A DNA stretch of 64,000 nt, taken from positions 4,216,001 to 4,280,000 of the forward strand of contig CM102288.1 in the NCBI GenBank assembly GCA_046563655.1, read 5' to 3'. Below are positions 2,548 to 25,000 of this stretch, piece by piece. Position numbers and translations under genes: made by a program. Positions within the stretch are counted from its first letter, which is position 1, and every line of letters starts with the position of its first letter. This DNA comes from Yuukianura sp. NJ FZ-2021 (taxonomy: Eukaryota). The notes under the pieces are model-generated. The model did not search any database and was not told where the DNA came from. It worked only from the letters and a program-made list of their open reading frames with translations.

Positions 2548-4175
2548 CTACCTTGAGGATTCAGGCAAGTCATCTGGGTCACTCACTTGACCTCTGGCTG
2601 CTCGTCGCCAAGTCATTTCTGGCTCAGTGATTTGTCGGTAGTGAGCCTTCTTCTCTTCCAAAGTGGGAGCTGAAGAGCCTTTCCCAGTCTTCCGCTTCTT
2701 CTTGTCATCTTGTTCGTTGTAAGCCTCGTTCAGTTCCATGTTCTCTTCAAACAGGTCATGTTCATACCCTAAACAAAACAATCATCACATTAACTTTAAT
2801 AATAACTTTGGAAGAGGTCAGAGGTCAAACTGTTCCTTTTTTACATAGATTAGTTTTATAGTGTCCAGTCAGGCAACGCGGCAGCTTTCTTTTCCTTCTT
2901 TTTTTTTTAAATTAGATTTTGTAGGAGTAGCACTTACTCTTCCCTCCATTCCAATGAACTTGGTTTTAATTAGACTAGTTTAAATTTTCAATTAATTAAC
3001 TTTTAGTTGAGTTTCCTCTTTGAGAAGACTGAAATTCTCCGGTTTTTGCCTTTTCTTGTCAAAACACAATTTTCCTCCATATCATATTCCTACTTAGGGT
3101 CAAAGGTCAAACTTATTTATAATATAGTTACTGTGTAGTGGGTTTTTATTTATTAATTAGCAAAACTTATACTTAATTAATTCCAGTTTGATTCAGGGTA
3201 TTCTGTTATGCTTTTGTAACTCGCTTCCGATTTAGCTTTACTTTTGTGTGGGTATTTTTTAATATTAGAGTTTAGAATGGGCGTTCCTGGTTGGTTGAAT
3301 TAAAACAATGGGTGGAAATGATTAAATTAAATGTCCATTAACTTATTGTTAATTGATTAATTGTGTTTACTTACTTTCAATCATAGGGAGGTTGTCTGGA
3401 TGGAGGTCCTTGGTTTGTTCCAACCAATCACGACACAGTTCCGGTTCAGAGAGGTTGAACAGTGCTCGAGCCTTGAGCAATTTTGCTTTGAGACTGCGCG
3501 GGTTGAGGTCAAGGGCTTGGTTGAGGTCCTCAATGGCTTTGGAGGGGATCCTGGATCGAATCCAGGTCAGAGCTCTGTTGGTATAGAGACAAGGACTGTC
3601 TTTCACTAGGTCAATTGCCTGGAACATCACAAGGTCATGAAAAGGTCAAAGGTCATCAATTCAAAGAACTAGTTATCCAGAACCTTGCTGTAGTTGTCCA
3701 GTGCTTGGGCGTATTCGCGCCGTTTGAATGCGTCGTTTCCTTTGGCACGGAATGCATCCGCTTTCTCCTTGCATTCGCGTCTTTGGCGCGCTCTTTCGGC
3801 GGCATCTTTTTCAACCATTCGCATAAACGCTTCTTGGTCCACAGAATCTCCAGCAGCACATTCCGAAGGATCGGAGGTCACTGGCTTGTTGATGACAGTT
3901 CGGTCACTTGTTACCTTTGTAGCCGATTCCCCATCAGGGTCACCTCTATCCCCTAAAAACAGAAATTGAAATGTTACTGATTCGTTCTGTATTTTTAAAA
4001 TGGAAATTGACCTTTGACCTTTATCGCACAGGAGAATGTCAGCTTGACGCAGTGCTTTTTCCTGTTCTTTTGAATCTTCTGATACAAGGCCTTCGACAAT
4101 TTTCGAAATTTCGTCAACTCGAGACAAGAAGTTCTCAAATTCAGGATCACTTGGATTTTTCAAAATGGCGTCCAT
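2548..4175 (-). CDS. TTC12: TTC12-like TPR protein (N-terminal plus TPR region only, about 300 aa)
   Basis: EFENFLSRVDEI, DRTVINK, QEAFMRMVEKDAAERA followed by three TPRs (GNDAFKRREYAQAL...LYTNRAL...LKAKLLKARAL); 4 exons in consistent phase. Confidence 0.75.
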
Positions 4176-4635
4176 TTTTGAAAAATCAACACGTTTTTTG
4201 ACAAATTTCAAAAATAGCAACTTTCTGCTAACGAAAACTTTACGCATTTATTGTGAACTTCAAAGCTTCTGTTTGCTTGTTTGTTCAATTTAGCAGGAAA
4301 CCATAGCAACCGTGTTTTTTGAATTTTAAAATATTCCATGATGCTGAAAATCAGTATTTTTCCATAATGTAGGAAGAAAAAAAAAGACAGAGTTTGTTGC
4401 AAAAACTGACCTCTGACCTTGTTGCCTGTCTTGATAAAGTCTTGCATGAAAATGACCTTCAAAAATTGAGGCGGACAACACGATATCAATTTTTCAAAAG
4501 CGTCACACATCCAGTTTCCACAAAGAATTTCTCAAGATCACGTCGCAGTTTCTTCCAAACTTTCTACCGAAGCGCAACTAAATAATCTAAAATTTCACTT
4601 CCAAATTTTACATTTCTAGAAGAAACATTTTGAAA

Positions 4636-6015
4636 ATGGCAAACTGGGTACCGACTCAAGTGATTCGTCCAACGGAAGAGCAAGCACTTCCAGACGAACT
4701 TACTTTCGTTGACACTGGTTATGGCAAGGACTATGTCAAGCTGCTCCACATTCGTCGTGATGGTCAAAAGCATTACATCAAAGAACTCGAGGTCAACACC
4801 CAGTTGACCTTGGACTCCAAAAAGGTCAGCACAAAATCCTGACCTTTACTGTTTAAAAATTTGAAATTTTGAAAAAAAAGTTTAAAAAATTGATTTTTTT
4901 CGTTTAGGACTACTTGTTTGGCGACAACTCTGACATCGTGGCGACTGATTCACAGAAGAACACTGTCTATGTGATGGCCAAGAACCACGGTGTCAAGTCC
5001 CTGGAAGAATTTGGACTGTTGTTGTGTTCTCATTTCCTGTCCAAGTACCCCCATGTCAACAAGGTTCGCATATGCATAGAAGAACATCCTTGGGATCGAC
5101 TCGTCTCGGACGGAATTCCGCACAACCACGCCTTCATCTCCACTCCAGTCGCCGTCCGCTTCTCTACAGTCACTTGTCGACGCGGAGGTAACTTTTCTAA
5201 CACAAAAATTGCTAAAAAGTCAGTTTTTTTTTCTGAAATTGCGAAGTTTTTAGCTTCTGATGGATAAGTTGAATGTCGAAACTTTTTGCACAACGTTGAC
5301 TTTCCCAATGCATGCCAAGTTGTTTGTGATAAGAGATGGAGTAATATTGGTTTCATAAGTTAACCTCAGAGGTCAAGCGCACTGTAGCCAAAAGGCGTTG
5401 CTCCAGGTCACTCTACTTTCTGACCTTACGTCATTTTTTTTTCAGCTCTGCCTGAAATTGTTTCTGGGCTGAAGAATTTACGCGTGATGAAGACGACCCA
5501 AAGTGCTTTTGAGCATTTCATCCACGACGAATTTGCTACGCTGCCGGATACGCCGGATCGGATTTTCAGCACAATTGTGTACTCCAAATGGCACTATGGA
5601 ACTACGAATGGAGTCGACTATGATTTGGCCTGGTACAGTTTCATCCAAATTTCAAATTTTCATTTTCATAAAAACCGTTTTTGAATTGAGTTTTTGGTAA
5701 CTTTTGTTCAGGAATACTGTGCGTGACTGCATTCTGGATGCCTTTGCTGGTCCGCCTGACACTGGAGTCTTTTCACCCTCAGTGCAGAACACTCTGTACA
5801 TTGCCGAGAAGAACGTCCTGGAACGCATTCCGCAAATGGCCAAGATCGAAGTTGTTCTGCCGAACAAGCACTACTACCCAATTGACTTTTCAAAGTTTAG
5901 CAAAGTCGGACTGAGATCAAACGATGACGTGTTCCTACCAGGGGACAAACCAGCGGGCTCAATTTCTGCTGTCCTGGGACGAAAAAGTCATTTGAATTTG
6001 AGCGCTAAATACTAA
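4636..6015 (+). CDS. Uro: Uricase (urate oxidase)
   Basis: [52 protein letters not shown] and PNKHY are uricase signature motifs; 4 exons. Confidence 0.97.
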
Positions 6016-6237: not shown

Positions 6238-7771
6238 ATGATGGAATTCGTGTCGTATGTCACGGTAGTAGTGACATGCTTGGTCGTCCTGGGTGGTGTC
6301 CAGGAGACTTACTGTACTGGCCTGGGGCAAAATTGTCATAGTGACCCCAGTGGGTGTGGAAGGGACGTGCCCAACAGTGAGTGTCCAGATATGGGTGCAG
6401 CCAGTTCCTGTGAATGTAAAAAGGGCTTTGTTCAAGCCGGGAGTGCTTGCGTGACGCCAGACCAAGTGAAGCCACCACCAGGCCCACCAGGACCCGGAAA
6501 ACCGACTTCAGGCCCAGGAGGACCAACACTCCAAACATTCGGCGGCTCATGCACTTCCAATGGTTAGTTTATTAGGAAACAACTTCATTACTTTACCAAT
6601 TTTAACTTTTTACCAATTTAACTTTTAATTTTTAAAAACTTTCTTAGACAATTGCATGACCCAAGGTGGTTTGAAGTGTGTGAATAAGAAGTGCGCATGT
6701 AATGGAGGACTGGATTGGATTGATTCCCGCTGCCGGAAGCCAGTAAGCGACAAGAAATGCACTCCCGGTGCTATCCGTAAGTTCAGAAATTAAGTTAATC
6801 CAAATTACAAAAGCTCTTTTCTGAAAAATGACGAGTGTTTTGTATGAATTTGTGAACTAGCGGACGATTGCACGGCAGAAGCTGTTCGCAACATGGAGTG
6901 TAACAATGCGACTCTCAAATGCCAATGTCCACCGCATATGTCTTTTTCCGTGGAGGACGACGCTTGTAAACTGAAGGCAGGAGAGAATTGCGTGATCAAA
7001 GTGGACAATGGAACGGATGTATACGAACATGACAATTGTGCCAGTCACCACTGCCAAGATCAGAAAACTGACCCCGATACTTATCAAAAATGTGAATGCA
7101 AAGATGTCAACAACATGAAACAGATTTGGTCTTCTGAGCCTGGAGAAAACTGCGTTCCTAACTTTTACGACGTCGAATGCAAAGGTTCCAAAACACTGCA
7201 TGTAAAAGGTCAAAGGTCAAATTCTTACAATATGATTTGATATAGATAAGTCCGACTGTCGCTGGCCATTGTTCAACACAAGTCGCAAGGGGCTGGTATG
7301 CAAAAATGGACGTTGCGCCTGTGAAGAAGGTTTGACGTTCTCCCATGGCTTCTGCGTCGTTGCCAAAGCATTGTACAACGAAATGTGTGATCCTCGTAAG
7401 TGACCTTGCCCGTGACCTTTAGCCTCTTTCCTGAAATCTTTTCGTTTTTAGGTGGAATAGATGTTACCTGTAAGACTGATAATTTGACGATGCTGTCGTG
7501 CAAAGACATTGGGAAAGGGTCCTATCGCTGCGTGTGTCTTCTGAAGGAAATTACGCGTGGTAAAGGCAAACGTACAATCACTTTATTCTGGAATCATGAC
7601 TCGAAAATTTGCGATTTGAAACCGAATGGGGAGAGATGCAATGGAGCCTACGAATGCAGAAGTGGATACTGCCGGGAGAAATGCATGACCTACGCCCCTG
7701 GTAAAGCCAAAGGTCACCTCACAACTGCAAGTCTCTTCACGATTTGTCTCACTCTGCTAAACATGTTCTAA
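6238..7771 (+). CDS. Cysteine-rich secreted or surface-anchored protein with EB/EGF-like modules and a Pro/Gly linker
   Basis: Hydrophobic N-terminus MMEFVSYVTVVVTCLVVLGGVQE, repeated CxC modules (CECKKGF, CQCPPHM, CVCLLK) and a hydrophobic C-terminal tail (LTTASLFTICLTLLNMF, possible GPI signal); several short introns. Confidence 0.7.
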
Positions 7772-10359: not shown

Positions 10360-12419
10360 TTAGTGTTGGCTCCATTTGATACTTTTCAAGTCAACTCCTT
10401 CTTGCACCATTTCCCACAGAGGACTACAAAAATTAAAAAAACAAACAAACGAAAATTGAAATGCTGATCAATGTTTTTTGTTGAATTGATTGGTCGTAGT
10501 TACCTCATTTCTCTGAGTCGTTGTGCTTGCATGATGCATTTGTCTGCAGTGTAGTCCACTTCCTTTTCCGTCGTGAATCGCCCAATTCCAAACCGAATTG
10601 AAGAATGTGCCAAGTCCTCGTCAGCTCCAATTGCTCTAAGGACGTAGGAAGGTTCAAGGGATGCAGAAGTACAAGCACTTCCACTCGACAGAGCCACGTC
10701 CTTCAACGCCATCAACAAACTCTCACCTTTTCAAAAAGTTCACAAAAATTAAAAATCAAAACTCAGAGAGTTTGAAAGAAAAACTTTGTTTAGTTTTTAC
10801 CTTCAATGTAAGCAAAGGAAATGTTGACACAGCCAGGGTAGCACTCCTTCGCGTCTCCGTTTCGGATAATGTGAGTCAAGGATTTACTCAGTCTGTTGAT
10901 AAATCTCTCGGACAAATACTCCACCCTCCGAAGATCGTACTAAACAAACAGTACTTTTTGAAATTTTGACAAAGATTTTAAACTTCTTTGGTCAAACTTA
11001 CTTTCATTTCCTGTTTGGCAATTTCACAGGCAGCTCCAAAGCCAACGACCAGCGGAGTTGGAACTGTGCCACTCCGGAGTCCTCTCTCTTGCCCACCGCC
11101 ACTGAAAATCGGTTCGAGACGCACACGCGGCCTTCTCCTGGCAAACAGCGCTCCGATACCCTTCGGCCCATAGATTTTATGACCACTGGAAGAAATACAA
11201 TGCGACAACTGATGGAATGGAAGAGATTCAACTAACGTGTGTAATTTCGACGACTATTACCTGATTGACATTAGGTCAATATTCATGTCCTCCACGTCCA
11301 TATCGATCTTCCCTACAGCTTGAGCCGCATCCGTGTGAAAAAATATCTTCCTCTCTCGACAAAGTTTGCCAATCGTGGCAATTGGTTGTTTGACTCCAAT
11401 CTCATTGTTGACTGACATTATGGTGACAAGACTCGTCTCTGGAGTCATAGCCTCAATCAACTCATCCAGGTTGATGATTCCGTTCGTCTGAACTGGAAGA
11501 TATGTCACCTTGAATCCTTCTGCTTCTAGTGCTCGGCAAGAATCCAACACACATTTGTGTTCCTGTGGATAAACAGAATTTGTGTCACAAATCGACAAAT
11601 GAAAACTGATTACATCGGAATTTTAAACTTTACAAGCATCCTACGTATGATTGCAAGGGCTTTTCCCCCCTGGTCCATTCAATAGTTCTAATTTTTAGCC
11701 TGACCAAGACTTTTTCAAAACGTAATATGCTAGAAAGTTAGAAGGTTTTTTTTTATCTTACTGTTTGGGTTGTTATAATGTGATTTTTCTTCGATCGGTA
11801 AAAATGGGCAACTCCTTTGATGGCAATGTTGTTTGACTCTGTTGCTCCAGACGTAAAAATGATTTCCTTTGGATCAGCCCCGATTATATCTGCAACATGC
11901 TACGACAAAGATAAAAGATTTACGAAATACTTAGAAACCATGAATGGAAACAAATCCTGTTACCTTTCGAGCAGTTTCCACTGCTTTTTCACTTTCCCAT
12001 CCATATGCATGTGTCCTGGAGTGAGGATTGCCATAGAATGAAGTGAGGTATGGTAACATGGCGTCCAGAACACGAGGATCCAGAGGAGTAGTTGCTTGAG
12101 CATCCAAGTACAAAGGTCGCCCAACAACTCCGTCCACAGTGATTGTCATCCCATCTGAAAAATGAACAAGGTAATATTTTTCGCAACTCTCCAGTTGAAG
12201 TACTAAAGGAATACGGAACATACCTAGTTGTTCTACGATACGCCTAGCTTCAACGGTTTCTGATTCAACGATGTTGTGAAGAAATCGCGAATGAGCCAAT
12301 GGTGATACGAAGGCATTGGGATTTGACAGATGAAGGGATTGACATGGAGCAGTAGCGAGAGCCCTGCCACTCAACTTGGAGGCAATCCCATAAGCTTTCC
12401 TTGCAATATTCGCCGCCAT
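10360..12419 (-). CDS. NFS1: Mitochondrial cysteine desulfurase
   Basis: [56 protein letters not shown] (PLP lysine), [17 protein letters not shown] (catalytic Cys) and terminal IKWSQH. Confidence 0.98.
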
Positions 12420-12984
12420 CAAAAGACGACCGGGTCAGGTCAATATAATATGAATACAGTAGCTGTAAAGAAAAAAAACCAAAAGTGAATGATATTGACA
12501 GTTATTGTAAAGTTTAGAAGAACGTAAAGTAAGCTTATTACCGTATCAAGATTCCAACCCACGCAACTTCCTTCTTTTATCCGGTGTTCGCTCTATCAAC
12601 GCTATAATCAGTTAGTCTAAGTAAATTACTTTTCTCTAACTTACTAATTAATACGTGACGGACTAGCGATAAGTGACGACGTTCTAAAAAGTTTGTTGTA
12701 AAATTTTTTGAATTTCTGAAAAGAATTTCCGCAATTCTGTCTCACATACTAACGAGTTGTCTAATTATCAGATAACTGTGTCAGCATTTTCACTTTTTGC
12801 AGAGAATTGGCCTCTTTCACAACTTTGCGTTGAGACAAAAAGTGCGCCAACTCTTTTTGAAAAACATAAATAAAGTAAAAAAGAAACACAAAAATCAAAA
12901 CCAAAGTGCAGAAAATGAACATTTTTGTGAGAACTTCGGATTTCTTTCATTTGTCATTTCATTTCAGGTTACTAAAGTTAAGTC
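12420..12984. promoter_or_regulatory. Divergent (bidirectional) promoter and 5' UTR interval between NFS1 and mS38
   Basis: The two ATGs point away from each other 566 bp apart; each has a 5' UTR splice acceptor just upstream. Confidence 0.6.
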
Positions 12985-13750
12985 ATGGCAGCCAACATTG
13001 CACGGAGGGCTTGTGGAATCGCTTCCAAGTTAAGCAGTAGAGCTGTCGTTGCTGGGTCGTGTCAGCGGTTCATTCCCCAAATCCAAATACCTCTGGCTCA
13101 ATTTCGCTTTGTAAGTTCATACTGCTCAATTTACTAAAAGTTCATTCTAATGATTTTCATGCATGTTTTAGAACCTTCATTCAAAGGAATGTATTGAGCC
13201 GGTATCTGTTAAAAGTAGCTGGAACCTTGGTGTGGTCTCCCCTCTACTCCGACTTCCGATCACCATCACTGTTCCTCAAGCCCATATCATCCAGCCTCTC
13301 CAAAACCCTTCATTCAACGATTCTTGTATAGAAGATCCCAGGAAACCTCCAACAGTCACAGACAATCCGTCTCCATCTCATGTGAAGAAAGAAGCTGCAC
13401 GTCTAGTTGTCATTCGACGGAAGAAGATGAACAAACACAAGTTGAAGAAACTGCGGCGGAAGATGAAGTACGTCTGGGCTAAAGTTAAAATCCGTCGTGA
13501 AATCCGGAAGGAAAAGGAATTCCTCAACGCTCAAATGGCTAGAATTCGGGAAGCTCAGACGTTTGATGCCAAAGCATACGTCGCTGACATTCTAAGAAGA
13601 GCCAAGGAGGAGCCACTGCCAACAAGGTGGGAGGGAAAGTTTTTTCCGGAACCCATGATTCGACAGAAGATGGAAATCGATGCTAAACGAAAACAACAGG
13701 AGTATTTGAGCATTCTGGACAAACGGAGACATCGGCAGGACAAGAAATAA
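12985..13750 (+). CDS. AURKAIP1: Mitoribosomal protein mS38 (Aurora kinase A-interacting protein 1 homolog)
   Basis: Exons 12985-13110 and 13172-13750 in frame; diagnostic basic motif AARLVVIRRKKMNKHKLKKLRRKMK (DUF1713). Confidence 0.9.
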
Positions 13751-13980: not shown

Positions 13981-15969
13981 ATGAGTTTGAAGGAGAAGTT
14001 GGTGGACATTTTGAAGTTTATATTTGTGGCGGTGGTTGTGCTGATTGGAATGGTGTTCAACAAACGACTGCTCATTGGTGTGGGCAAAGTCACTTCTCTC
14101 TACCCTACGATTGTGTACAACTTCAACCTGTTCCTGGTCGTCGTGTTGTCATTGCCCTTCAGTGTCCACAAAAAGTTGTCCTTTGGACTTCCTGGGCCAC
14201 CGAGGGAGACACCGGCGACAGCAGACGAAGAACTAGTTCAAGAAGAAGATGTTGACGAACTCGTGAGTAACTGGGGAACGCTCAACGCCATCCAGCAGCC
14301 AGTCGCTTCTTCCTTGGCAGATATAACAACGGTACGACAACTAAAAATTATACAATTATGACATAATTGTATAAAACCAATATTCTAACTATAATGCTAC
14401 GTTTATAATGCTACGTTTTGTTTTGAATTTTAGCCTCAAGTGATTGAATTGTACGGATATACGTGTGAAACGCACAAAGTTCGGACAGAAGATGGATACA
14501 TACTAACGATGCATCGAATCCCGCATGGCAGGGGTCAAGGGTCAACGGTTGAAAGTCGTCGTCCAGTCGTTTTTATGCAGCATGGCCTCTTCGCTTCCTC
14601 CTTTGAATGGTTCATGAACTCTCCAGACAAACTTTTGGGTAACGCCATCACATTTTGAAAGAAAAACTTTTGTTTAACTTTGACTTGTGATTTTAAGGTC
14701 TGCAATTGGTGGAAGAAGGGTATGACGTTTGGTTTGGAAACATGCGTGGAAATACATACTCCCGAGAACATGTCACCCTCTCCCCAAAAACTTCCGAATT
14801 TTGGCAATTCAGGTGACAGTTTTTGAAAATGTGAAAAGTTGTAAATTTTGAAATTTTGATTTTGAGCAGCGTGCATGAGATGGGGAAATACGACCTTCCG
14901 GCGGAAATCGATCATGTGCTGGCCATAACTGGAGTCGAACAGATCCGCTACATTGGCTACTCCATGGGCAGCTCCATGTTCTGGATGTAAAAATAGTTTA
15001 GTTGTAGAAATATTAAGTTTAGAATAAGACATTGTTATGTTCTTAGCATGATGTCGCTTCGACCAGAGTACAATGAAAAAGTCAAGGTCATCATAGCACT
15101 GGCTCCTGTCGTTTACATCAACAATGTCAAGGGATTCCCTAAGCTCCTCTTTGCCCCATTTAGGAATCAGTTAGCCGTAAGTGATTTCCTAAGTTCAATT
15201 TGTTTTTCAAGTTCAAAAAATGTTGAAATGTTGAAAATCTTGAAAATTTCAGTTGCTGATTGACGTGTTCTTCCATAGTGAATGTATGCCACCGTTTCTT
15301 CTCAAGATTTGCAACTTTATTTTTTCCCACCTCAGTTCAAATCGCTTTGTGGCAGAAGCGTTTTGTGCAAACGTTAATTTCTTCTACCCAGGATGGGATT
15401 TGGCACAAACACAAATCGTAGTAACCAAAAAAAGTTCAGTTTTTGACTTTTCTAATACAGGTTTTCCTAAAATATTTTTGAAACGGACTTTTTAGAAGCA
15501 GCTTCCATTGTTCTACAGTCACACGCCTGCCCCCACTTCCGCCCGAACCCTGGTCCACATGGGCCAGTTGATGATGAAGGGAGTGTTTGCACAGTACGAC
15601 TGGGGAGTTACCAAGAATCTGGAAGTGTACGGTCAGCCAACACCCCCGAAGTACTTTCTATCTCGAACTAAAGTCCCAGTCGCTCTCATCTACGGCCTCA
15701 ACGACGCTGTTGTTGAACCTTCAGTAATTCAAAACAAAAATTATCACATCACATTTTGTACCACAGAATTCGAAAAGTTAAACTGATTCAAAATATTTTA
15801 CGTTTTCCAGGAAGTCCAGCGTTTGGCAGCAGAACTTCCGAATGTTATTTCCAATCGAGCAGTGAATTTCCCGCTCTGGAACCATTTTGACTTTCACTTG
15901 GCCAAAGACGTCAACATCCTTCTCAACGCTCCACTCATCCAAATACTCTCCAAGTTCAAATCGGACTAA
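13981..15969 (+). CDS. Acid lipase family member (lipase 3/LIPA-like, alpha/beta hydrolase)
   Basis: [50 protein letters not shown], nucleophile elbow YIGYSMG, Asp in GLNDAVV and His in NHFDF. Confidence 0.92.
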
Positions 15970-16601: not shown

Positions 16602-19600
16602 CTAGAGGTCTGTGTCGTACCAAGCTGCTTCTTGCTTTCCATCTGCTGATGGAGGTTGTGGAACATCTTCGTAACTCTCCATGTCCATTCCATCAAAGTT
16701 GAAATCCATTACTCCAGCATCCCCAAATCCTATAAAAACCAAAAATAAGTCAGTATTATAAACTGAAAACTTGAAACGCTAAAAGCACTTAAGATTAGCT
16801 TTTAGATTTAAGATTTAAGCTTAAGACAGCTTTTAGGACCTAAAGGAACTCCACATAATGTTACGATTAGGTAATTGCGTAAACTGCGCTGCTTTCGTTT
16901 GGAAGCACTTAAGAACTAAATGTTGACTTGATTATTAGTGTAGTTAGTGGGGTAACTGTTTCAGTAGACGATTGTTTTGTAGTTTCTACCTCTGTAAGGA
17001 TTTCCATTTGGTCCAGCAAACACAGAAGGATCAAATACTGTGTCAGGATTCAACATATCCTACAAAAAATTAAGCAAACAAAAACAAACATAACAAAATC
17101 AGAAAATAATCAATCAATAAACTAAATGAGACAGAAATAACGAAAGAAAATACGAATGGTAAAAGAATTGATTCGCTGCAGAAACTTTAAAACTAATGCA
17201 ATCGTCGGTTGTTGGCCACCTCATATTTTTTCCAAAGAAAACTGACCTGGAAATCTGGAGGTGGTCCACTCATTTCATGTGTCCAAATGGATTCTCTGTC
17301 GTAGAGAGAGTTGCTCAACTCCATGGATAGTCGCTTCTTATATTCTGGTGGTTTGTCCTGTGACATTGCGTACAGAACCGCAGCAGCATAAGTAGCTACG
17401 CCTTCATTCTGAGAATGTAAAAGTTCCGTCAAAGTTGCAGTGGCTCCCTCACGCTCAATCATATCAGCTCCCTCTTTATCCTGGGCCAGCTCACACAACA
17501 CTCCTGCTGCAACACGCTGTACATTCGCCAGTTCGTGGTATAGAAGCTACAAATTCACAAACATGAGTCAAACACAACAAACAATGCAAAACAAAACGAC
17601 AAAAAATTATGTTCTTATTTTTGCATGTCTAGGAAATACCTGAACAAAGACCGCAATCACTTGCATCCCTCTGATTTGAGCCCGGTTATGCGGGGAGTCC
17701 TTTGCCAATATTTGAAGGGCTCCCACGGCCCCTTCCACAATCTCCTCCATTTTGACTCCATCTGCATAAAGGGCTGAACTTCCTCCAGAGGAAACTGAAG
17801 TTCGTCGCTGTGAATCCTGGTAAGCTCGCATTAGAAGATGAACGAGGCGTGCAATTGCCCCATTCTCTCGCTAAAAACGTAAATCAAAACTTAGTTTTAC
17901 ATTTAAATGTCCAATTCAAAACAAGAACCTACCAATGGAGCGTGATTTGCAGGGCAGAGAGCAAGGTTGCGAATGAGACCAATTACGGCTTTGATGAGCG
18001 GCCAACGTGAAGGTGGCTGCATCAACTTCACCACAACTGGAATTCCATAGGACAAACCTACAACAACAAAGTTAAAATATAAATTTTGACATTCTAAAAA
18101 AAAAAGCCAAAAGGTCTATTTGCTTACGAATTGCATTTTGTCCCAACTCTGAAACTGGATGACGAGAAGTGAGATGGCGAAGTGCGCAAATAGCTGGTTC
18201 CGTAATCTCTTCACGATCTCCTGCAGCTCTCACGGTGCTCACGAGAGCTTCGATTCCATTGATTTGACACACGACCATTTTGTTGTGATGATTGTTGCAA
18301 GTGAGATTAGACAAAATCCCAGCAGCACACGTCACAATGTTGCCATCTCCTGAAGCAAGCAAATTCACCAGTTCCTGCAGCAGCAAATCCATTCCATCCT
18401 AAAAACATTTACAAGGAATCGTAAAATTAAGAATAAAAATAAAAAAGTCCATCTTTTGTCTATAATTTTGGAAATTGTTAAACTCACAACTTTGGTTGCA
18501 GCATCTGACAAATTGCGAAGAGTCCAAAGACAGTTCATGACAAGTCGTTGTGAGGGATGTCGAAGATGCTTCGCTAGAGCTTGCATTCCACCGGCATCAA
18601 CAATTGCAGGCTTATTACTTTGGCACACGCTCAGAACTGCAACAGACGATAAAAATAGACACAAACACTCAATTGTTAATTTTTTGACGAGATACCTTTG
18701 AGAACGCGTGAAGTTGTCCAGAGTAGTTTTTCGTAGTCATACAATCCCATTATGCGAACGAGTTCAATGGGTCCTTGCGAAGCGAGAATGATGAGCTTCG
18801 ACTCTTGATTTCCATACGTCAGAATCTGAAGACAATCCGTCACAATAGCCAGGAATTTGACATTGTTCTTGCAGAGAAGTGTCACCATCTTTTGCAATCC
18901 ACCGGCCAAGCGAACGGCCATTTTGGAACCTTCGAACAAAATAATAGGCAATTAACAAAACACTTAAACCAATCGTTAAACCAAACTTAACAATTGTTAT
19001 AGTCTGAAGAAGTCACGAACCTTCCTGGTGAAGCAGGAGGTTATGGAGCGTTGTGATGGCATAAAAGAGGACTGCTTCAACTGGGGAACTGAGTAGCTTC
19101 ACAAGAGCTGGAATTCCAGTGCTCTTGAAAATAGCCAAAAGTCCTTGACGATGATGTGACAAATTGTGAAGAGTCCCCACTGATCCTTTCGTCGTGTCCA
19201 GATCATTCGAGCTGGAAATGGCCCGTACAAGAGCTGCAACCTTTGATCGAAAAGGAATAATTGAAGTTAATTAAAGGATGGAGTAATTGGTTGATTGATG
19301 CATTGTTTCGTTTCCACTTACAAGTTGTGGGTTGCTCATGATGGCATGTCGAGCTGCTTCTTTCTTGCTCAATTGATGAACCATCATCGCTGCATTGGAA
19401 ACAATAACTTGATCTTCATCGTTTAGTAGCTTGATGAGCTCTGGAATTGCTCGAGTAGCAAGATCCGCATCATCTTGGTAGTTGATGATGTTTACGACAG
19501 CGTGTTTCAGCATCTGTGCTGGTTCGGCAAGGCGCTGAACAGCCGTTGGAACTGAAGGATCAAATTGTGTCGATGGAATTTCAACGCCCTCATCAAGAGT

Positions 19601-20023
19601 TTCCGGAAACATTGCTGCCCGTACCCGTTGAGAACGAGTAACGTTCAATTCCACGTTCATTTCTGGAATAACATTAAAATTATACACTGCTGGAGCTTTA
19701 TGGATTCGTCAACAAAATGATAAACTTACCGTCAACTTCTCCTGAAGTAAATCCCGAGTACCCCTGCGAATCCAAATCAAAGAGCAGTGACCCGTCGTCC
19801 ATTTCTTCATCGCCGCGTAGAGAATGTGCTCCAGTAGTGGCCCCTGAATGGACGCCAGAATCCAAAACTCCATACCCTCCTTGCTGCCACATTAGAGCCT
19901 CACTATTTTCTTGCTCTACAGTTTATCAAAAATTGAAATTCATCAGGATCTTCTTGAAATTGTAAATTTAGTTGTTAAGTTCTTACTTATTCGCTGAGGC
20001 CCAGATTGCATTTGATAAGCCAT
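16602..20023 (-). CDS. arm: Armadillo / beta-catenin
   Basis: Phosphodegron [24 protein letters not shown], armadillo repeats ([27 protein letters not shown]) and C-terminal AWYDTDL. Confidence 0.98.
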
Positions 20024-21229: not shown

Positions 21230-21513
21230 GTAAGTAATCGATTAATCCTCGTCTTTATTAGTTATCGTTTCAGGAAATAACCGTCTAGTGTTCCCATTTT
21301 CACTGCTTTGCTGTAAGTCCAAACGTATCTGCTAATCTGAAATTGTTTTGAGCGGATGCCGGTGTTTCTGTATTTGAATTAGTGTTAAAATATTCGAAAC
21401 AAAGTGGTATAAAAATACATGGAGTCTTAGTAGTGGTTTGCGTTAATTCCCAAGAACGCAGATACGTAGAGAAGGAAGGAAGTGCTAATTTGTTGAATTT
21501 GATTTTAGGCAAG

Positions 21514-21999
21514 ATGGTGAAGATTATGAAAGCTGGGAAGGTGGTGCTGGTGTTGAACGGGCGATACGCTGGTAGGAAAGCCATAGTCGTCAAGAACTTG
21601 GACGATGGATCAGCAGAGAGGCCCTACGGACACGCCATTGTCGCTGGAATCGACCGCTACCCACGCAAAATCGTGAAGAGGATGAGCAAAGACACCATCA
21701 AGAAGCGAAACAAGATCAAGGCTTTCATCAAGGTCAGTCATTCTAACAAACGTCTGGTACTACTATCACTGGCAGCATCAAATATCTAATGTACTGTTGA
21801 TTTGTAGGTCGTAAACTACAACCACCTCATGCCTACCCGCTACTCGGTGGACATTCCCTTTGAGAAACAGGCCCAAAATGTCAAGAGTCTAAGGGACCCC
21901 ATGAAGCGGAAGAAGGTTCGATACCAGATCAAGGCCAAGTTTGAAGAGAGGTACAAGAGTGGGAAAAACAAATGGTTCTTCCAGAAACTCAGATTCTAA
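21514..21999 (+). CDS. RpL27: 60S ribosomal protein L27 (eL27)
   Basis: [23 protein letters not shown]...[11 protein letters not shown]...[12 protein letters not shown]; one intron at 21733-21807. Confidence 0.98.
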
Positions 22000-22063: not shown

Positions 22064-25000
22064 TCAACAGTAAGGACAGATTTGTCTTTTGAGTTGATCT
22101 AATACAAACGTTTTAGTGTCAACTTCCCATTGCCTGGAATTGAGAACCATGAGGTAGGGATTTTTAGCAGGATTTCCACCTTCTCGCAATTGAAGTGTCA
22201 TTGGTTGTGGCTGCAGCTTTTCCGTGGCAACTCCAGGCATCTAGAGTAATTAATTCATAATTAATCTGCATATCTTAAGTATCTTATATCTTAAGTTGTT
22301 TCAAATGGCTTACTTGACCCAGTGGAACCAATATTTCTCCCATGAAGTCATTGGCAGACAGGAGGTCAAAGTCTTTGATTGTGAAGCGAACGATGACATT
22401 CGTCCATGACTCCAGTCCAATCTTGTCCCAGTAGAATTCAAACGTTTCTCCAAAAGTGGGGTTGAGAGTGTGCTTGTGTGTCTTTGTTTTTCGGATTGAC
22501 CCCACAGTGTGACCTTCCACCAACAACTCAATTTCTACGAATGGGTCACTGGAACCAGATCTAACTTTGGAACAAACGTCCCAAAATGGGGAAGGGTGGT
22601 CCAGCGGCAGCAGATTCTTCCCTGAAATGACTTCGATTTGGAGTTTCCGTTCCACAGCAAATATTCGAAGTCGAAGTGTTCCGTACAATCCTCGACCTTT
22701 CAACTCCTAAAGTTAATTTCAAAGTTAAAAGTTATTGGTCATGCATAGTAAGTCAGAATTGTACTGACCAATTGTTCTGCAGCTCTATCATGGAAGTATT
22801 CTGCAATGAGCTGTTCAGAAGGTAGGACAAAGAGATGAAGAAGTTTTTGTGCAAACTTGAACTGTGGTAATTCAAGATGGTTGTCGTTGAGTCCTTCTCC
22901 ATTTCCTTTCAAGTACTCAACCAATAGCGGCACAAGATTCTGGAAATGGCCAAAGTACACTTGTTGGGCCACTGTTGATGTGACAGGCACATGGACCACA
23001 GCTTCCACCAGTTCGTCGCATGTGACCAACCAAATGACGTGGACCAATCGGACAAAGTTTGGATGAAGCAAGTATTGATGGAGGACACTTAGGTTGTTTT
23101 CCAAGTAAGTGACGAGTGGACCTAAGGGGTCATCGGATCCTGGATTGGATTCAAAGAAAAGAACAACGTCGTTCCATGCAGCCCGAATCTGAAATAAAAA
23201 ACGTTATAAACGTTTTTGGAAAAAGACAATTTTTTGTTCAAAAGTCTTACTTCTGGTCTGATACGATGAGCGATTCCGGCCATGATGATTTGAATTTCTG
23301 ATTCAATTTCATTCACTGCCGTAATAATGGACATGACGATTCTTCTGTGACAAGTATCCAGTGTTTCTGTTTTGTCACCGACAGACTGTTTGAGTCCTTC
23401 CAGAAGAGTGTCCATCAATAACTCGGTCGGCATCTTGCGAACGGTTTCCTGGACGTAGTGAATGTTGTTGAGTGAAGTACAAAGTCGTTCCGAAATGTCA
23501 AATTGCCCCACGGTGTCAAAATACCTTCACAACAAAGTTGACATTTCAATTGATGAATTGACAAATGATTAATTAATACTGCCAAAGTACTGAATACCCC
23601 TCTCTGTCTATCTTCCTTCTCTTGAGTTTTGCATACAAGATTGAAATGTAGGTCATGACCTCCAGTAGAAACATGTTGATGACCGAGTTCTCTGACGGAT
23701 CTGGCCAGTTCAACTCTTTAGCAAAGTTGGCCAGTTGATGAAAGACAAAGACAGTTTCCAGTGCAGAGTGGCTGATGAACTTCTTCCCATCAACGTCAAT
23801 CTCATCAGAGTCAATTGATACGGAGATCATTTGATGAGCCTTGATGAAAGCAAATCCCAGCCACAAGATGAGCACTGGACGAAACCACTCGTGGAAAGTG
23901 TCTAGATGGGGATAGAACTTGCGCATTCCGAGACTTTGGGCAAATACTTGATCCTGGAAGTAGACGAAGCGATGTGTCTCGGCATAAAGTTCAAAGAAAC
24001 AGACGCAGAGGGCCTTGTGTTCTGGACTTATGCGCAGAAGAATCTTGCGTTGGGCATCGTTGTCTCCAATTTCCTTGTCAAGTCCAGCAGTAGCTCCTTC
24101 GATGTCATTTACAACTGCCTTCTGGAATTCATCGTACAACAGAGGCAAGTAGTCCACGTTCCCTTCCATTGCAAAAACTCCATGCAGTGACTTTTGACCT
24201 TCGCTCAGTTTCCGGTTCACCACGCCCATCACCTATAACATTATAAAAAATTCGAATTTCAAAGTTTTGCAACTTTATATGTCGTGTTTTCTTATACTTG
24301 CGCAAGCCCACAAATGACTTGAGCGTGAGTTTGGTCCGGAGGTCCACGAACGAATTCCTTTCTTGTTTCTTGATACCACTGCTGGATTCCGAATCGGAGT
24401 GAAACTTTGACTTCAGTGTCAACTGCCTCCACTTGGTCCGTCGCTCCCATTCGATTCAGAATACTTTGAACATGACGAATTGTTCCGAGGGCTTGGTCCA
24501 CATTGGCCCGTTTTTCGTGAAAGTGGTTCCGGAGGACAAGATATGGGCCCTGGAGTGTCTTGAGAAGAGAAGACAGCATTTCTGTTCTGTCACAATGGTC
24601 TACCTTCCCTTGAACAGATTCTGGAGACCATCCTTCAAACTTTTGCATAGAACAATCCAGTTCCTTCAGTTCTGTTCCATGGATCTCCAAGTGACGTTTG
24701 GCATAAGCGTTGAACCGGATGATAGCCTGTAAGGAGCAGAAAAATGCACATTGACCTTGACCTTGTGTTTCCATATTCTTCAACTGACCTGAGAAGCTTC
24801 GCTGAGTCCAGTTTGGAGCCCATATTGGAAAAGTAAGCAACTAGCGGCTGCTGGAATCGTACTGTCCCAGGGTTCCCCTGCCACTGACTTCTTCTTCGCT
24901 TCAACGTCCAAAACGTAATCCCAAAGTTTTTCTAAAACGACGCGTGGATGGGCTTCCGGAGTCTGAAAATAACAATTTTGCAATTAGAATTCGCGAAAAT

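Follow-up and report, generated by a model that had tools for sequence, protein, structure and literature searches.

A presequence exon probably shared through inverted duplication between the head-to-head genes NFS1 and mS38 in a likely springtail genome

The presequences of different mitochondrial proteins normally share almost no sequence (PMC3692466). Copied leaders are described for rice rps11, where they came from other mitochondrial genes (Kadowaki et al. 1996, cited in PMC2031878), for cytochrome c1, as a case of exon shuffling (Long et al. 1996, cited in PMC2031878), and for sdh3 of Cupressaceae and Cephalotaxaceae, the presequence of which came from the gene for a mitochondrial heat-shock chaperonin (PMC8317393). 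Here we analysed a stretch of 64,000 nucleotides (nt) from Yuukianura sp. NJ FZ-2021 (GCA_046563655.1, contig CM102288.1, positions 4,216,001 to 4,280,000; hereafter the window), in which NFS1 (minus strand, ATG at 12419) and mS38/AURKAIP1 (plus strand, ATG at 12985) lie head-to-head with 565 nt between the two ATGs and begin with the same leader peptide. In our judgment a local inverted duplication probably placed the NFS1 presequence exon before mS38, both copies serving as ordinary matrix-targeting signals, in a kind of exchange that appears to recur between these neighbours. Head-to-head gene pairs sharing a bidirectional promoter are a recognised arrangement, and NFS1 and mS38 are likewise divergent with starts less than 1 kb apart, both in the window (565 nt) and in a relative, the contig L002 (792 nt, exons read by hand). 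We know of no bidirectional gene pair in which coding first exons are exchanged.

As in the rps11 and cytochrome c1 cases summarised in PMC2031878, a targeting peptide is common to unrelated mature proteins through DNA duplication, and the leader occupies an exon of its own in the recipient. In contrast to those cases, NFS1 and mS38 are long-established nuclear genes, both already dependent on a presequence, so that the event would be a replacement and not the activation of a transferred organelle gene; mS38, unlike the recipients of the classic plant cases, is not a recent transfer from the organelle. In addition, the two genes are adjacent and head-to-head, the copy is inverted, the host is an animal, and the exchange is seemingly recurrent and perhaps bidirectional. 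The sdh3 case is similar in that the leader derives from a different nuclear gene whose product is mitochondrial, but it concerns plants, after organelle-to-nucleus transfer, and the accessible part of PMC8317393 mentions neither adjacency nor an inverted repeat.

The NFS1 leader (...PLAHSRFLH) and the mS38 leader (MAANIARRACGIASKLSSRAVVAGSCQRFIPQIQIPLAQFRF, followed by gtaagt at 13111) were identical at 17 of the first 20, 19 of the first 27, and 25 of all 42 aligned residues, and BLASTP of the two exon translations gave 25/46 identical residues (E value 4e-12). The underlying DNA forms an inverted repeat with arms at 12340-12419 and 12985-13064 (80 nt, 73% complementary), and collinear pieces reach 12282 and 13110. 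Local DNA alignment with 150 nt of extra flank began exactly at both ATGs and stopped at the last codons of mS38 exon 1, with no similarity in the 150 nt 5' of either ATG. The two sides of the intergenic region (12420..12984) had no detectable similarity to each other. When the leader was searched against the 64-kb window with tblastn, the copy was found with an E value of 5e-9 and the next best match with 0.68. Apart from the mS38 leader, no ATG-started open stretch of 20 codons in the window (772 in all) exceeded an anchored identity of 7/20 to the NFS1 leader, and the leader pair had a z score of 16 against shuffled sequences. Presequences do have composition in common, so that chance or convergence between independent presequences had to be weighed. 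It is ruled out for the window leaders by the E value of 4e-12, the next-best identity of 7/20 and the z score of 16, to which the 73% identity of collinear DNA is added, and we give it practically no credence. The leaders are thus homologous parts, from duplicated DNA, of proteins with unrelated mature parts, as in exon duplication or shuffling, and the homology ends at the gtaagt donor (13111), so that the leader in the recipient is bounded by an intron whose splice is predicted.

Synonymous and replacement changes were distributed very unevenly between the two leaders. In the first 20 codons the proportion of synonymous differences (pS) was 0.85 (12/14.2 sites) and that of replacement differences (pN) 0.065 (3/45.8 sites; Fisher's test, p = 3e-8). 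The values were 0.76 and 0.13 for the first 27 codons, and 0.67 and 0.23 (0.233) for all 42 aligned codons, where the ratio after Jukes-Cantor (JC) correction was about 0.16; Fisher tests over the three spans gave p values from 3e-8 to 1e-5. Identity at the first, second and third codon positions of the first 27 codons was 22/27, 23/27 and 13/27, and the 17 identical residues among the first 20 used the same codon in 7 cases and differed synonymously in 10. Divergence is close to saturation at synonymous sites but not at replacement sites. Because of this pattern, we consider that the copy on the mS38 side has long been translated and that the duplication is old; to judge from the codons, it is not the pattern of a dead relic.

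These results bear on an earlier note on this DNA, which had named the two genes, described the common peptide as presequence-like and free of acidic residues, and proposed that a local inverted duplication handed one gene the targeting exon of the other, with purifying selection on both copies since then. The codon table reproduced its counts (17/20, 19/27, and 10 of 17 identical codons differing synonymously). The proposal of inverted duplication agrees with the inverted repeat and with homology that starts from both ATGs, and that of purifying selection with 12/14.2 against 3/45.8 sites. The ratio of replacement to synonymous divergence (dN/dS) of about 0.16 over 42 codons was not near 1, and equal similarity among other open reading frame (ORF) starts of the window was not seen (best, 7/20 of 772). 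The gene identities were confirmed by Pfam matches to Aminotran_5 (1.7e-10) and COX24_C (4.6e-7) and by a profile match to 3j9m_A3, as described below.

NFS1 was recognised as a member of the NFS1/class-V aminotransferase cysteine desulfurases by the Aminotran_5 match in its ORF, and Orchesella cincta NFS1 (P0035) matched the window by tblastn in six segments covering residues 65-477 with 67-95% identity. Exon 2 (beginning at 12154) is in frame with exon 1, and the joined peptide matched residues 65-128 of Orchesella NFS1 with 91% identity. The best named NFS1 match to a 101-residue window exon was that of the springtail Orchesella cincta (84%). The ORF at 10978-11253 contains a motif that we take to carry the pyridoxal phosphate (PLP) lysine. 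Both the window and L002 have the motif TIT[IV]DG ahead of the catalytic core; among the 120 NFS1 matches listed, 3 have it (Orchesella and two JGI proteins). By these NFS1 comparisons, the organism is probably a springtail or closely related to springtails. The two top-scoring NFS1 matches were irregular: P0031, a 655-residue NCBI protein, has the NFS1 middle region duplicated in tandem, and P0032 (319 residues), an 'UNVERIFIED_CONTAM' record under a quail, has an internal repeat.

The basic C-terminal core encoded at 13172-13750 matched COX24_C with 30.1 bits (cutoff 23). A profile of 17 mS38 relatives matched the human mS38/AURKAIP1 chain 3j9m_A3 (E value 3e-7) and yeast COX24/mS38 chain 8om2_1 (9e-4) in the PDB, a search that gave 0 matches with the single mS38 sequence; both the core and the similarity to mitoribosomal chains place the protein in the mS38 family. 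Because an in-frame TAG (13169-13171) lies directly upstream of exon 2 and the first in-frame ATG (13427) falls within the conserved KMNKHKL core, exon 2 needs an upstream start exon. There are 51 possible in-frame GT-AG pairs, and the pair 13110/13172 has the only gtaagt donor among them; it leaves the leader complete, and its product, of 234 residues, is the longest. We infer that this splice and both ATGs are used.

If instead the plus-strand copy were a decaying relic of a partial NFS1 duplication, mS38 would start from another exon. The many possible splice combinations and the lack of transcript support for the window splice leave room for such a relic, as does the possibility that the relative L001 uses a different and unrelated first exon. 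The substitution pattern, which indicates selection on the peptide, the ORF, which is unbroken between its ATG and a consensus donor and has the phase of exon 2, and the joining of such a leader to mS38 in one ORF of another lineage (L003, see below) argue against it, and we regard the relic as very unlikely.

The preferred explanation, probable inverted duplication, can be put as follows. An inverted duplication across the short promoter region would have copied about 138 nt of the 5' part of NFS1 exon 1 coding the presequence, and the copy on the far side of the promoter would have served mS38 as a new first coding exon or taken the place of an earlier one. Its GT donor is predicted to splice in phase to the mS38 body. 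Both leaders would act as N-terminal presequences, presumably recognised by TOM/TIM23 and cleaved near PLA..RF; selection on targeting would preserve the protein sequence while silent sites are randomised. The swap would be tolerated if the leader is a removable address tag usable on either protein. The coordinates are given in Table 1.

Table 1. Coordinates and structure of the NFS1-mS38 locus (positions in the window)
Feature	Position	Strand	Description
NFS1 exon 1	12224..12419	-	196 nt, phase 1, donor GT 12223-12222; presequence, then beginning of NFS1-specific N-terminal region; from ORF and sequence
NFS1 inverted-repeat arm	12282..12419	-	shared leader, residues 1-46
NFS1 intron 1	12155..12223	-	predicted, 69 nt, GT...AG; frame restored
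Other NFS1 exons and introns	10363..12154	-	C-terminal end ...WSQH; from tblastn and Aminotran_5
Intergenic region	12420..12984	.	565 nt; both 5' untranslated regions and presumed bidirectional promoter
mS38 exon 1	12985..13110	+	predicted, 126 nt, 42 codons, phase 0; inverted copy of NFS1 leader
mS38 intron 1	13111..13171	+	predicted, 61 nt, gtaagt...tgcatgttttag, pyrimidine-rich acceptor; read from sequence
mS38 exon 2 (last coding)	13172..13750	+	192 codons and stop; mS38/COX24_C core

Relatives of mS38 were collected by an exon-2 search (28 proteins) and a scan of JGI contigs (14 loci); exons in L001, L002 and L005 were modelled by hand. L002, a genomic contig of 10.6 kb, has the two genes head-to-head: NFS1 on the minus strand, at 3573-5260 with its first exon opening at ATG 5575, and mS38 on the plus strand. 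The latter reads as a leader exon (ATG 6368 to 6533) separated by an 86-nt intron from the body (6620-7230). From these readings, head-to-head order and an mS38 leader exon with a short intron are common to the window and L002. The NFS1 and mS38 leaders of L002 are unlike each other (z 0.1), and head-to-head synteny is by this comparison older than leader sharing. Of the two features that the earlier note proposed to survey in orthologs, the synteny was found in L002; the leaders of L002 are unlike, and L001 lacks such a leader upstream. Different mS38 leaders of their own were also found in L002, L005, L007, P0009, P0011 and P0016; tblastn of both window leaders against the 14 related loci gave nothing below an E value of 0.16, and no inverted repeats matching the leader exons were found upstream in L002, L005 and L001.

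A second pair with a shared leader was found among environmental sequences. L003, a 1250-nt contig with an uninterrupted ORF, starts MIRKPVERTLSLTALCSKMCNISIRSNSTIG, an NFS1-like leader joined directly to a COX24_C protein, and P0061, a complete NFS1 of 463 residues, starts MFKKPLEKTLSLTALCSRMCNVAIRSNSTFG; the two leaders are identical at 23/32 residues from residue 1 (E value 2e-13). When each of 42 mS38 N-terminal regions was compared with every one of 78 NFS1 leaders, two pairs only fell below an E value of 0.01, namely the window pair (7e-10) and L003/P0061 (1.7e-14). Judged by these sequences, a second and quite different leader is common to the NFS1 and mS38 families. The JGI protein P0014, also environmental (291 residues, from a 5'-open ORF on a 1077-nt contig), has an NFS1 fragment in frame before mS38, so that a single ORF matches both Aminotran_5 (3.5e-5, 23.4 bits, above cutoff) and COX24_C (9e-8). 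The NFS1 portion (residues 9-100) is identical to Orchesella NFS1 at 51/98 positions (52%; E value 5e-22), as compared with 71-84% for the listed NFS1 matches (most 76-84%; three odd rows 63-65%), and by its sequence it is a decayed internal fragment. Its mS38 core is complete, with the bodies of L002 and L007 nearest (63-65%). From all this, the adjacency of NFS1 and mS38 appears to be old in the likely springtail clade, and the exchange of leaders appears to be recurrent; the older synteny and the second shared leader were the wider context that the earlier note lacked.

The direction of transfer was considered separately for the two lineages. In the window lineage the sequences point to NFS1 as the donor: the Orchesella NFS1 start MAFRIARGAW agrees with the window leader at 6/10 anchored positions, the best among 143 M-started proteins (next, 4/10), and O. 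dallaii NFS1 starts as that of O. cincta does. In the L003/P0061 lineage they point to mS38, as the leader resembles that of mS38 in L007 (z 5.1) and in L002 (z 3.9) and has no resemblance to the L002 NFS1 leader (z 0.4 and 0.0); the presumed mS38 leader of L005 also begins MI-.

Sharing in two lineages could also be reached if a single inverted duplication long ago was succeeded by episodes of gene conversion that affected the two leader exons (concerted evolution), in which case the exchanges of the lineages would not be independent. Inverted repeats are natural substrates for gene conversion. In both lineages the two genes have a leader in common, yet from one lineage to the other the leaders are wholly different, and the L003 mS38 leader is nearer to the P0061 NFS1 leader (72%, z 22) than to the L007 mS38 leader, as conversion would have it. 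However, the raised identity at silent sites and in flanks that marks gene conversion was not seen, and the window bears no trace of a recent event: silent sites in the window are near random, with 7/18 non-Met identical residues sharing a codon and the third positions at 13/27, and no similarity extends beyond the coding part. Moreover, the L002 leaders are unlike, and each lineage seems to have derived its shared leader from a different gene, an outcome not expected from a single founding duplication. Conversion is in our opinion unlikely, though it is the alternative that we take most seriously.

Several results weigh against the reading of inverted duplication with recurrent exchange. In local alignments assessed with shuffles, the window leader did not stand out against Orchesella NFS1 (p 0.24) or L002 NFS1 (p 0.12); the evidence on direction is modest, and the exchange would have run in both directions if both donor readings hold. 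No third copy of the leader was found within the 64-kb window, although carriers elsewhere in the genome are possible. A word-index search of longer proteins for the leader gave 78 candidates, none with an E value of 10 or less; a leader profile against 1.84 billion representatives gave 1 match, a repetitive 660-residue protein judged irrelevant; and a JGI contig scan with the leader alignment gave 337 pattern matches, 0 of which were confirmed. In L001, the closest available mS38 relative (69%), the 451 upstream bases contain no such leader, and because of this leader sharing is either lineage-restricted or lost in L001. L003 and P0061 may come from different genomes, and P0061 or P0014 may be an assembly chimera. 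Finally, an environmental RNA library sharing 6% of sampled words yielded 4 contig pieces, none over the leader exons and with no joints, a result that is neutral on the expression of the exons.

Note that L001 has a short ATG exon at 110-159 (MSSTRAPWKRKCRSHS, gtaagg donor) that could be joined in phase 2 to the mS38 body (acceptor ctctgcag, body from 406 onward); such a leader would be unrelated to that of the window. In the RNA library, a 200-nt contig matched 12447-12574, just upstream of the NFS1 ATG, over 128 bases with 1 mismatch. Its remaining 72 letters are unlike the window. The point of departure lacks a canonical splice site, and 16 nt taken from the loose end do not occur in the window; the contig may represent a structural variant or be chimeric.

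Both leaders have the sequence features of matrix presequences: they are N-terminal, with a net charge of +4 over residues 1-20, no acidic residue (Asp, Glu) among 48 and 42 residues, and a maximum hydrophobic moment over 18 residues of 0.45 and 0.52, so that an amphipathic helix can form. This agrees with the earlier description as presequence-like and acid-free, and cleavage probably occurs near the conserved PLA..RF. For the promoter, TTAYRTAA, which we take to be a motif of insect nuclear respiratory genes, occurred 4 times in the window (4.25 expected) and 0 times in the intergenic region.

The degree of conservation between the leaders is not exceptional. Between the window and L001, the mS38 body had a pN of 0.234 and a pS of 0.81, and this pN equals that of the whole leader (0.233). 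The NFS1 sequences of two Orchesella species differ at a single position among residues 1-16 and diverge thereafter. Because the leader pN is the same as that of the mS38 body and Orchesella NFS1 has the same N-terminal-heavy pattern, we do not consider leader conservation extraordinary; it resembles what would be expected if the N-terminal part of a presequence, taken as its helix, were under ordinary constraint. The earlier note had read from the conservation a sequence-specific role of the shared peptide, such as an import or processing route or nascent-chain control that couples iron-sulfur (Fe-S) supply to mitoribosome biogenesis. Sharing in two lineages with different sequences would be expected if matching outweighs sequence, and presequences are reported to set protein-specific import efficiency (PMC12306757, PMC12154679). 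On the other hand, L002 has the same gene pair with unlike leaders, L001 has no such leader upstream of mS38, and leader divergence is ordinary (dN/dS about 0.16, pN as in mS38 orthologues, Orchesella NFS1 leaders similarly conserved), so that neutral tolerance of the swap accounts for the data. A coupling role is not needed to explain the conservation, and we think it improbable.

The neighbourhood of the gene pair was also surveyed. Downstream of mS38 the window has a lipase-like gene by ORF reading (Pfam gave nothing in ORF 15496-15786), and L001 has, at 1681-2751, a gene with long Pro/Gln-rich repeats (NSPQPGPSWQAQPPPPQSFPSPPQD...); because these genes differ, downstream synteny between the window and L001 is not kept. 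Window genes at 4908-6015, 19271-19708, 21352-21789 and 22284-22706 include a uricase (Pfam, 2e-21) and a C2-domain protein (6e-18). Neighbouring genes also encode ribosomal protein L27e (KOW, 4e-6; L27e, 1e-4 and 22.4 bits, just below the 24-bit cutoff) and an armadillo/HEAT-repeat protein, beta-catenin-like by ORF text, with weak HEAT-type Pfam matches below cutoff.

Literature searches on NFS1 with AURKAIP1, on shared or identical presequences and on chimeric first exons, judged mostly by titles and abstract openings, yielded no such presequence swap in animals. The acquisition of a leader by duplicating an existing signal is known from plants, and the adjacent, inverted and apparently recurrent animal case is new, as are the head-to-head synteny with unlike leaders (L002), the second shared leader (P0061/L003) and the NFS1 fragment before mS38 (P0014). 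In practice, the short mS38 leader exon is easily missed in annotation, and the repeat may mislead assemblers and gene callers.

A more far-reaching idea is that the springtail NFS1 and mS38 first exons form an evolving palindrome around the promoter, re-made in either direction and kept by selection for the same import signal. We hold this to be quite unlikely; if true, it would amount to a heritable coupling of two pathways of mitochondrial biogenesis through their address tag, with the same import priority and processing. Even without it, the locus adds to what is documented, since copied leaders have been described mainly from plant genes newly transferred from organelles, whereas the present exchange appears to involve two animal genes of long standing that mitochondria cannot do without, and to have taken place, seemingly more than once, because they are head-to-head neighbours. 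Inverted duplication across a bidirectional promoter would be a structural route for presequence turnover, and the resulting leaders may serve as natural swap experiments bearing on whether presequences hold protein-specific import information.

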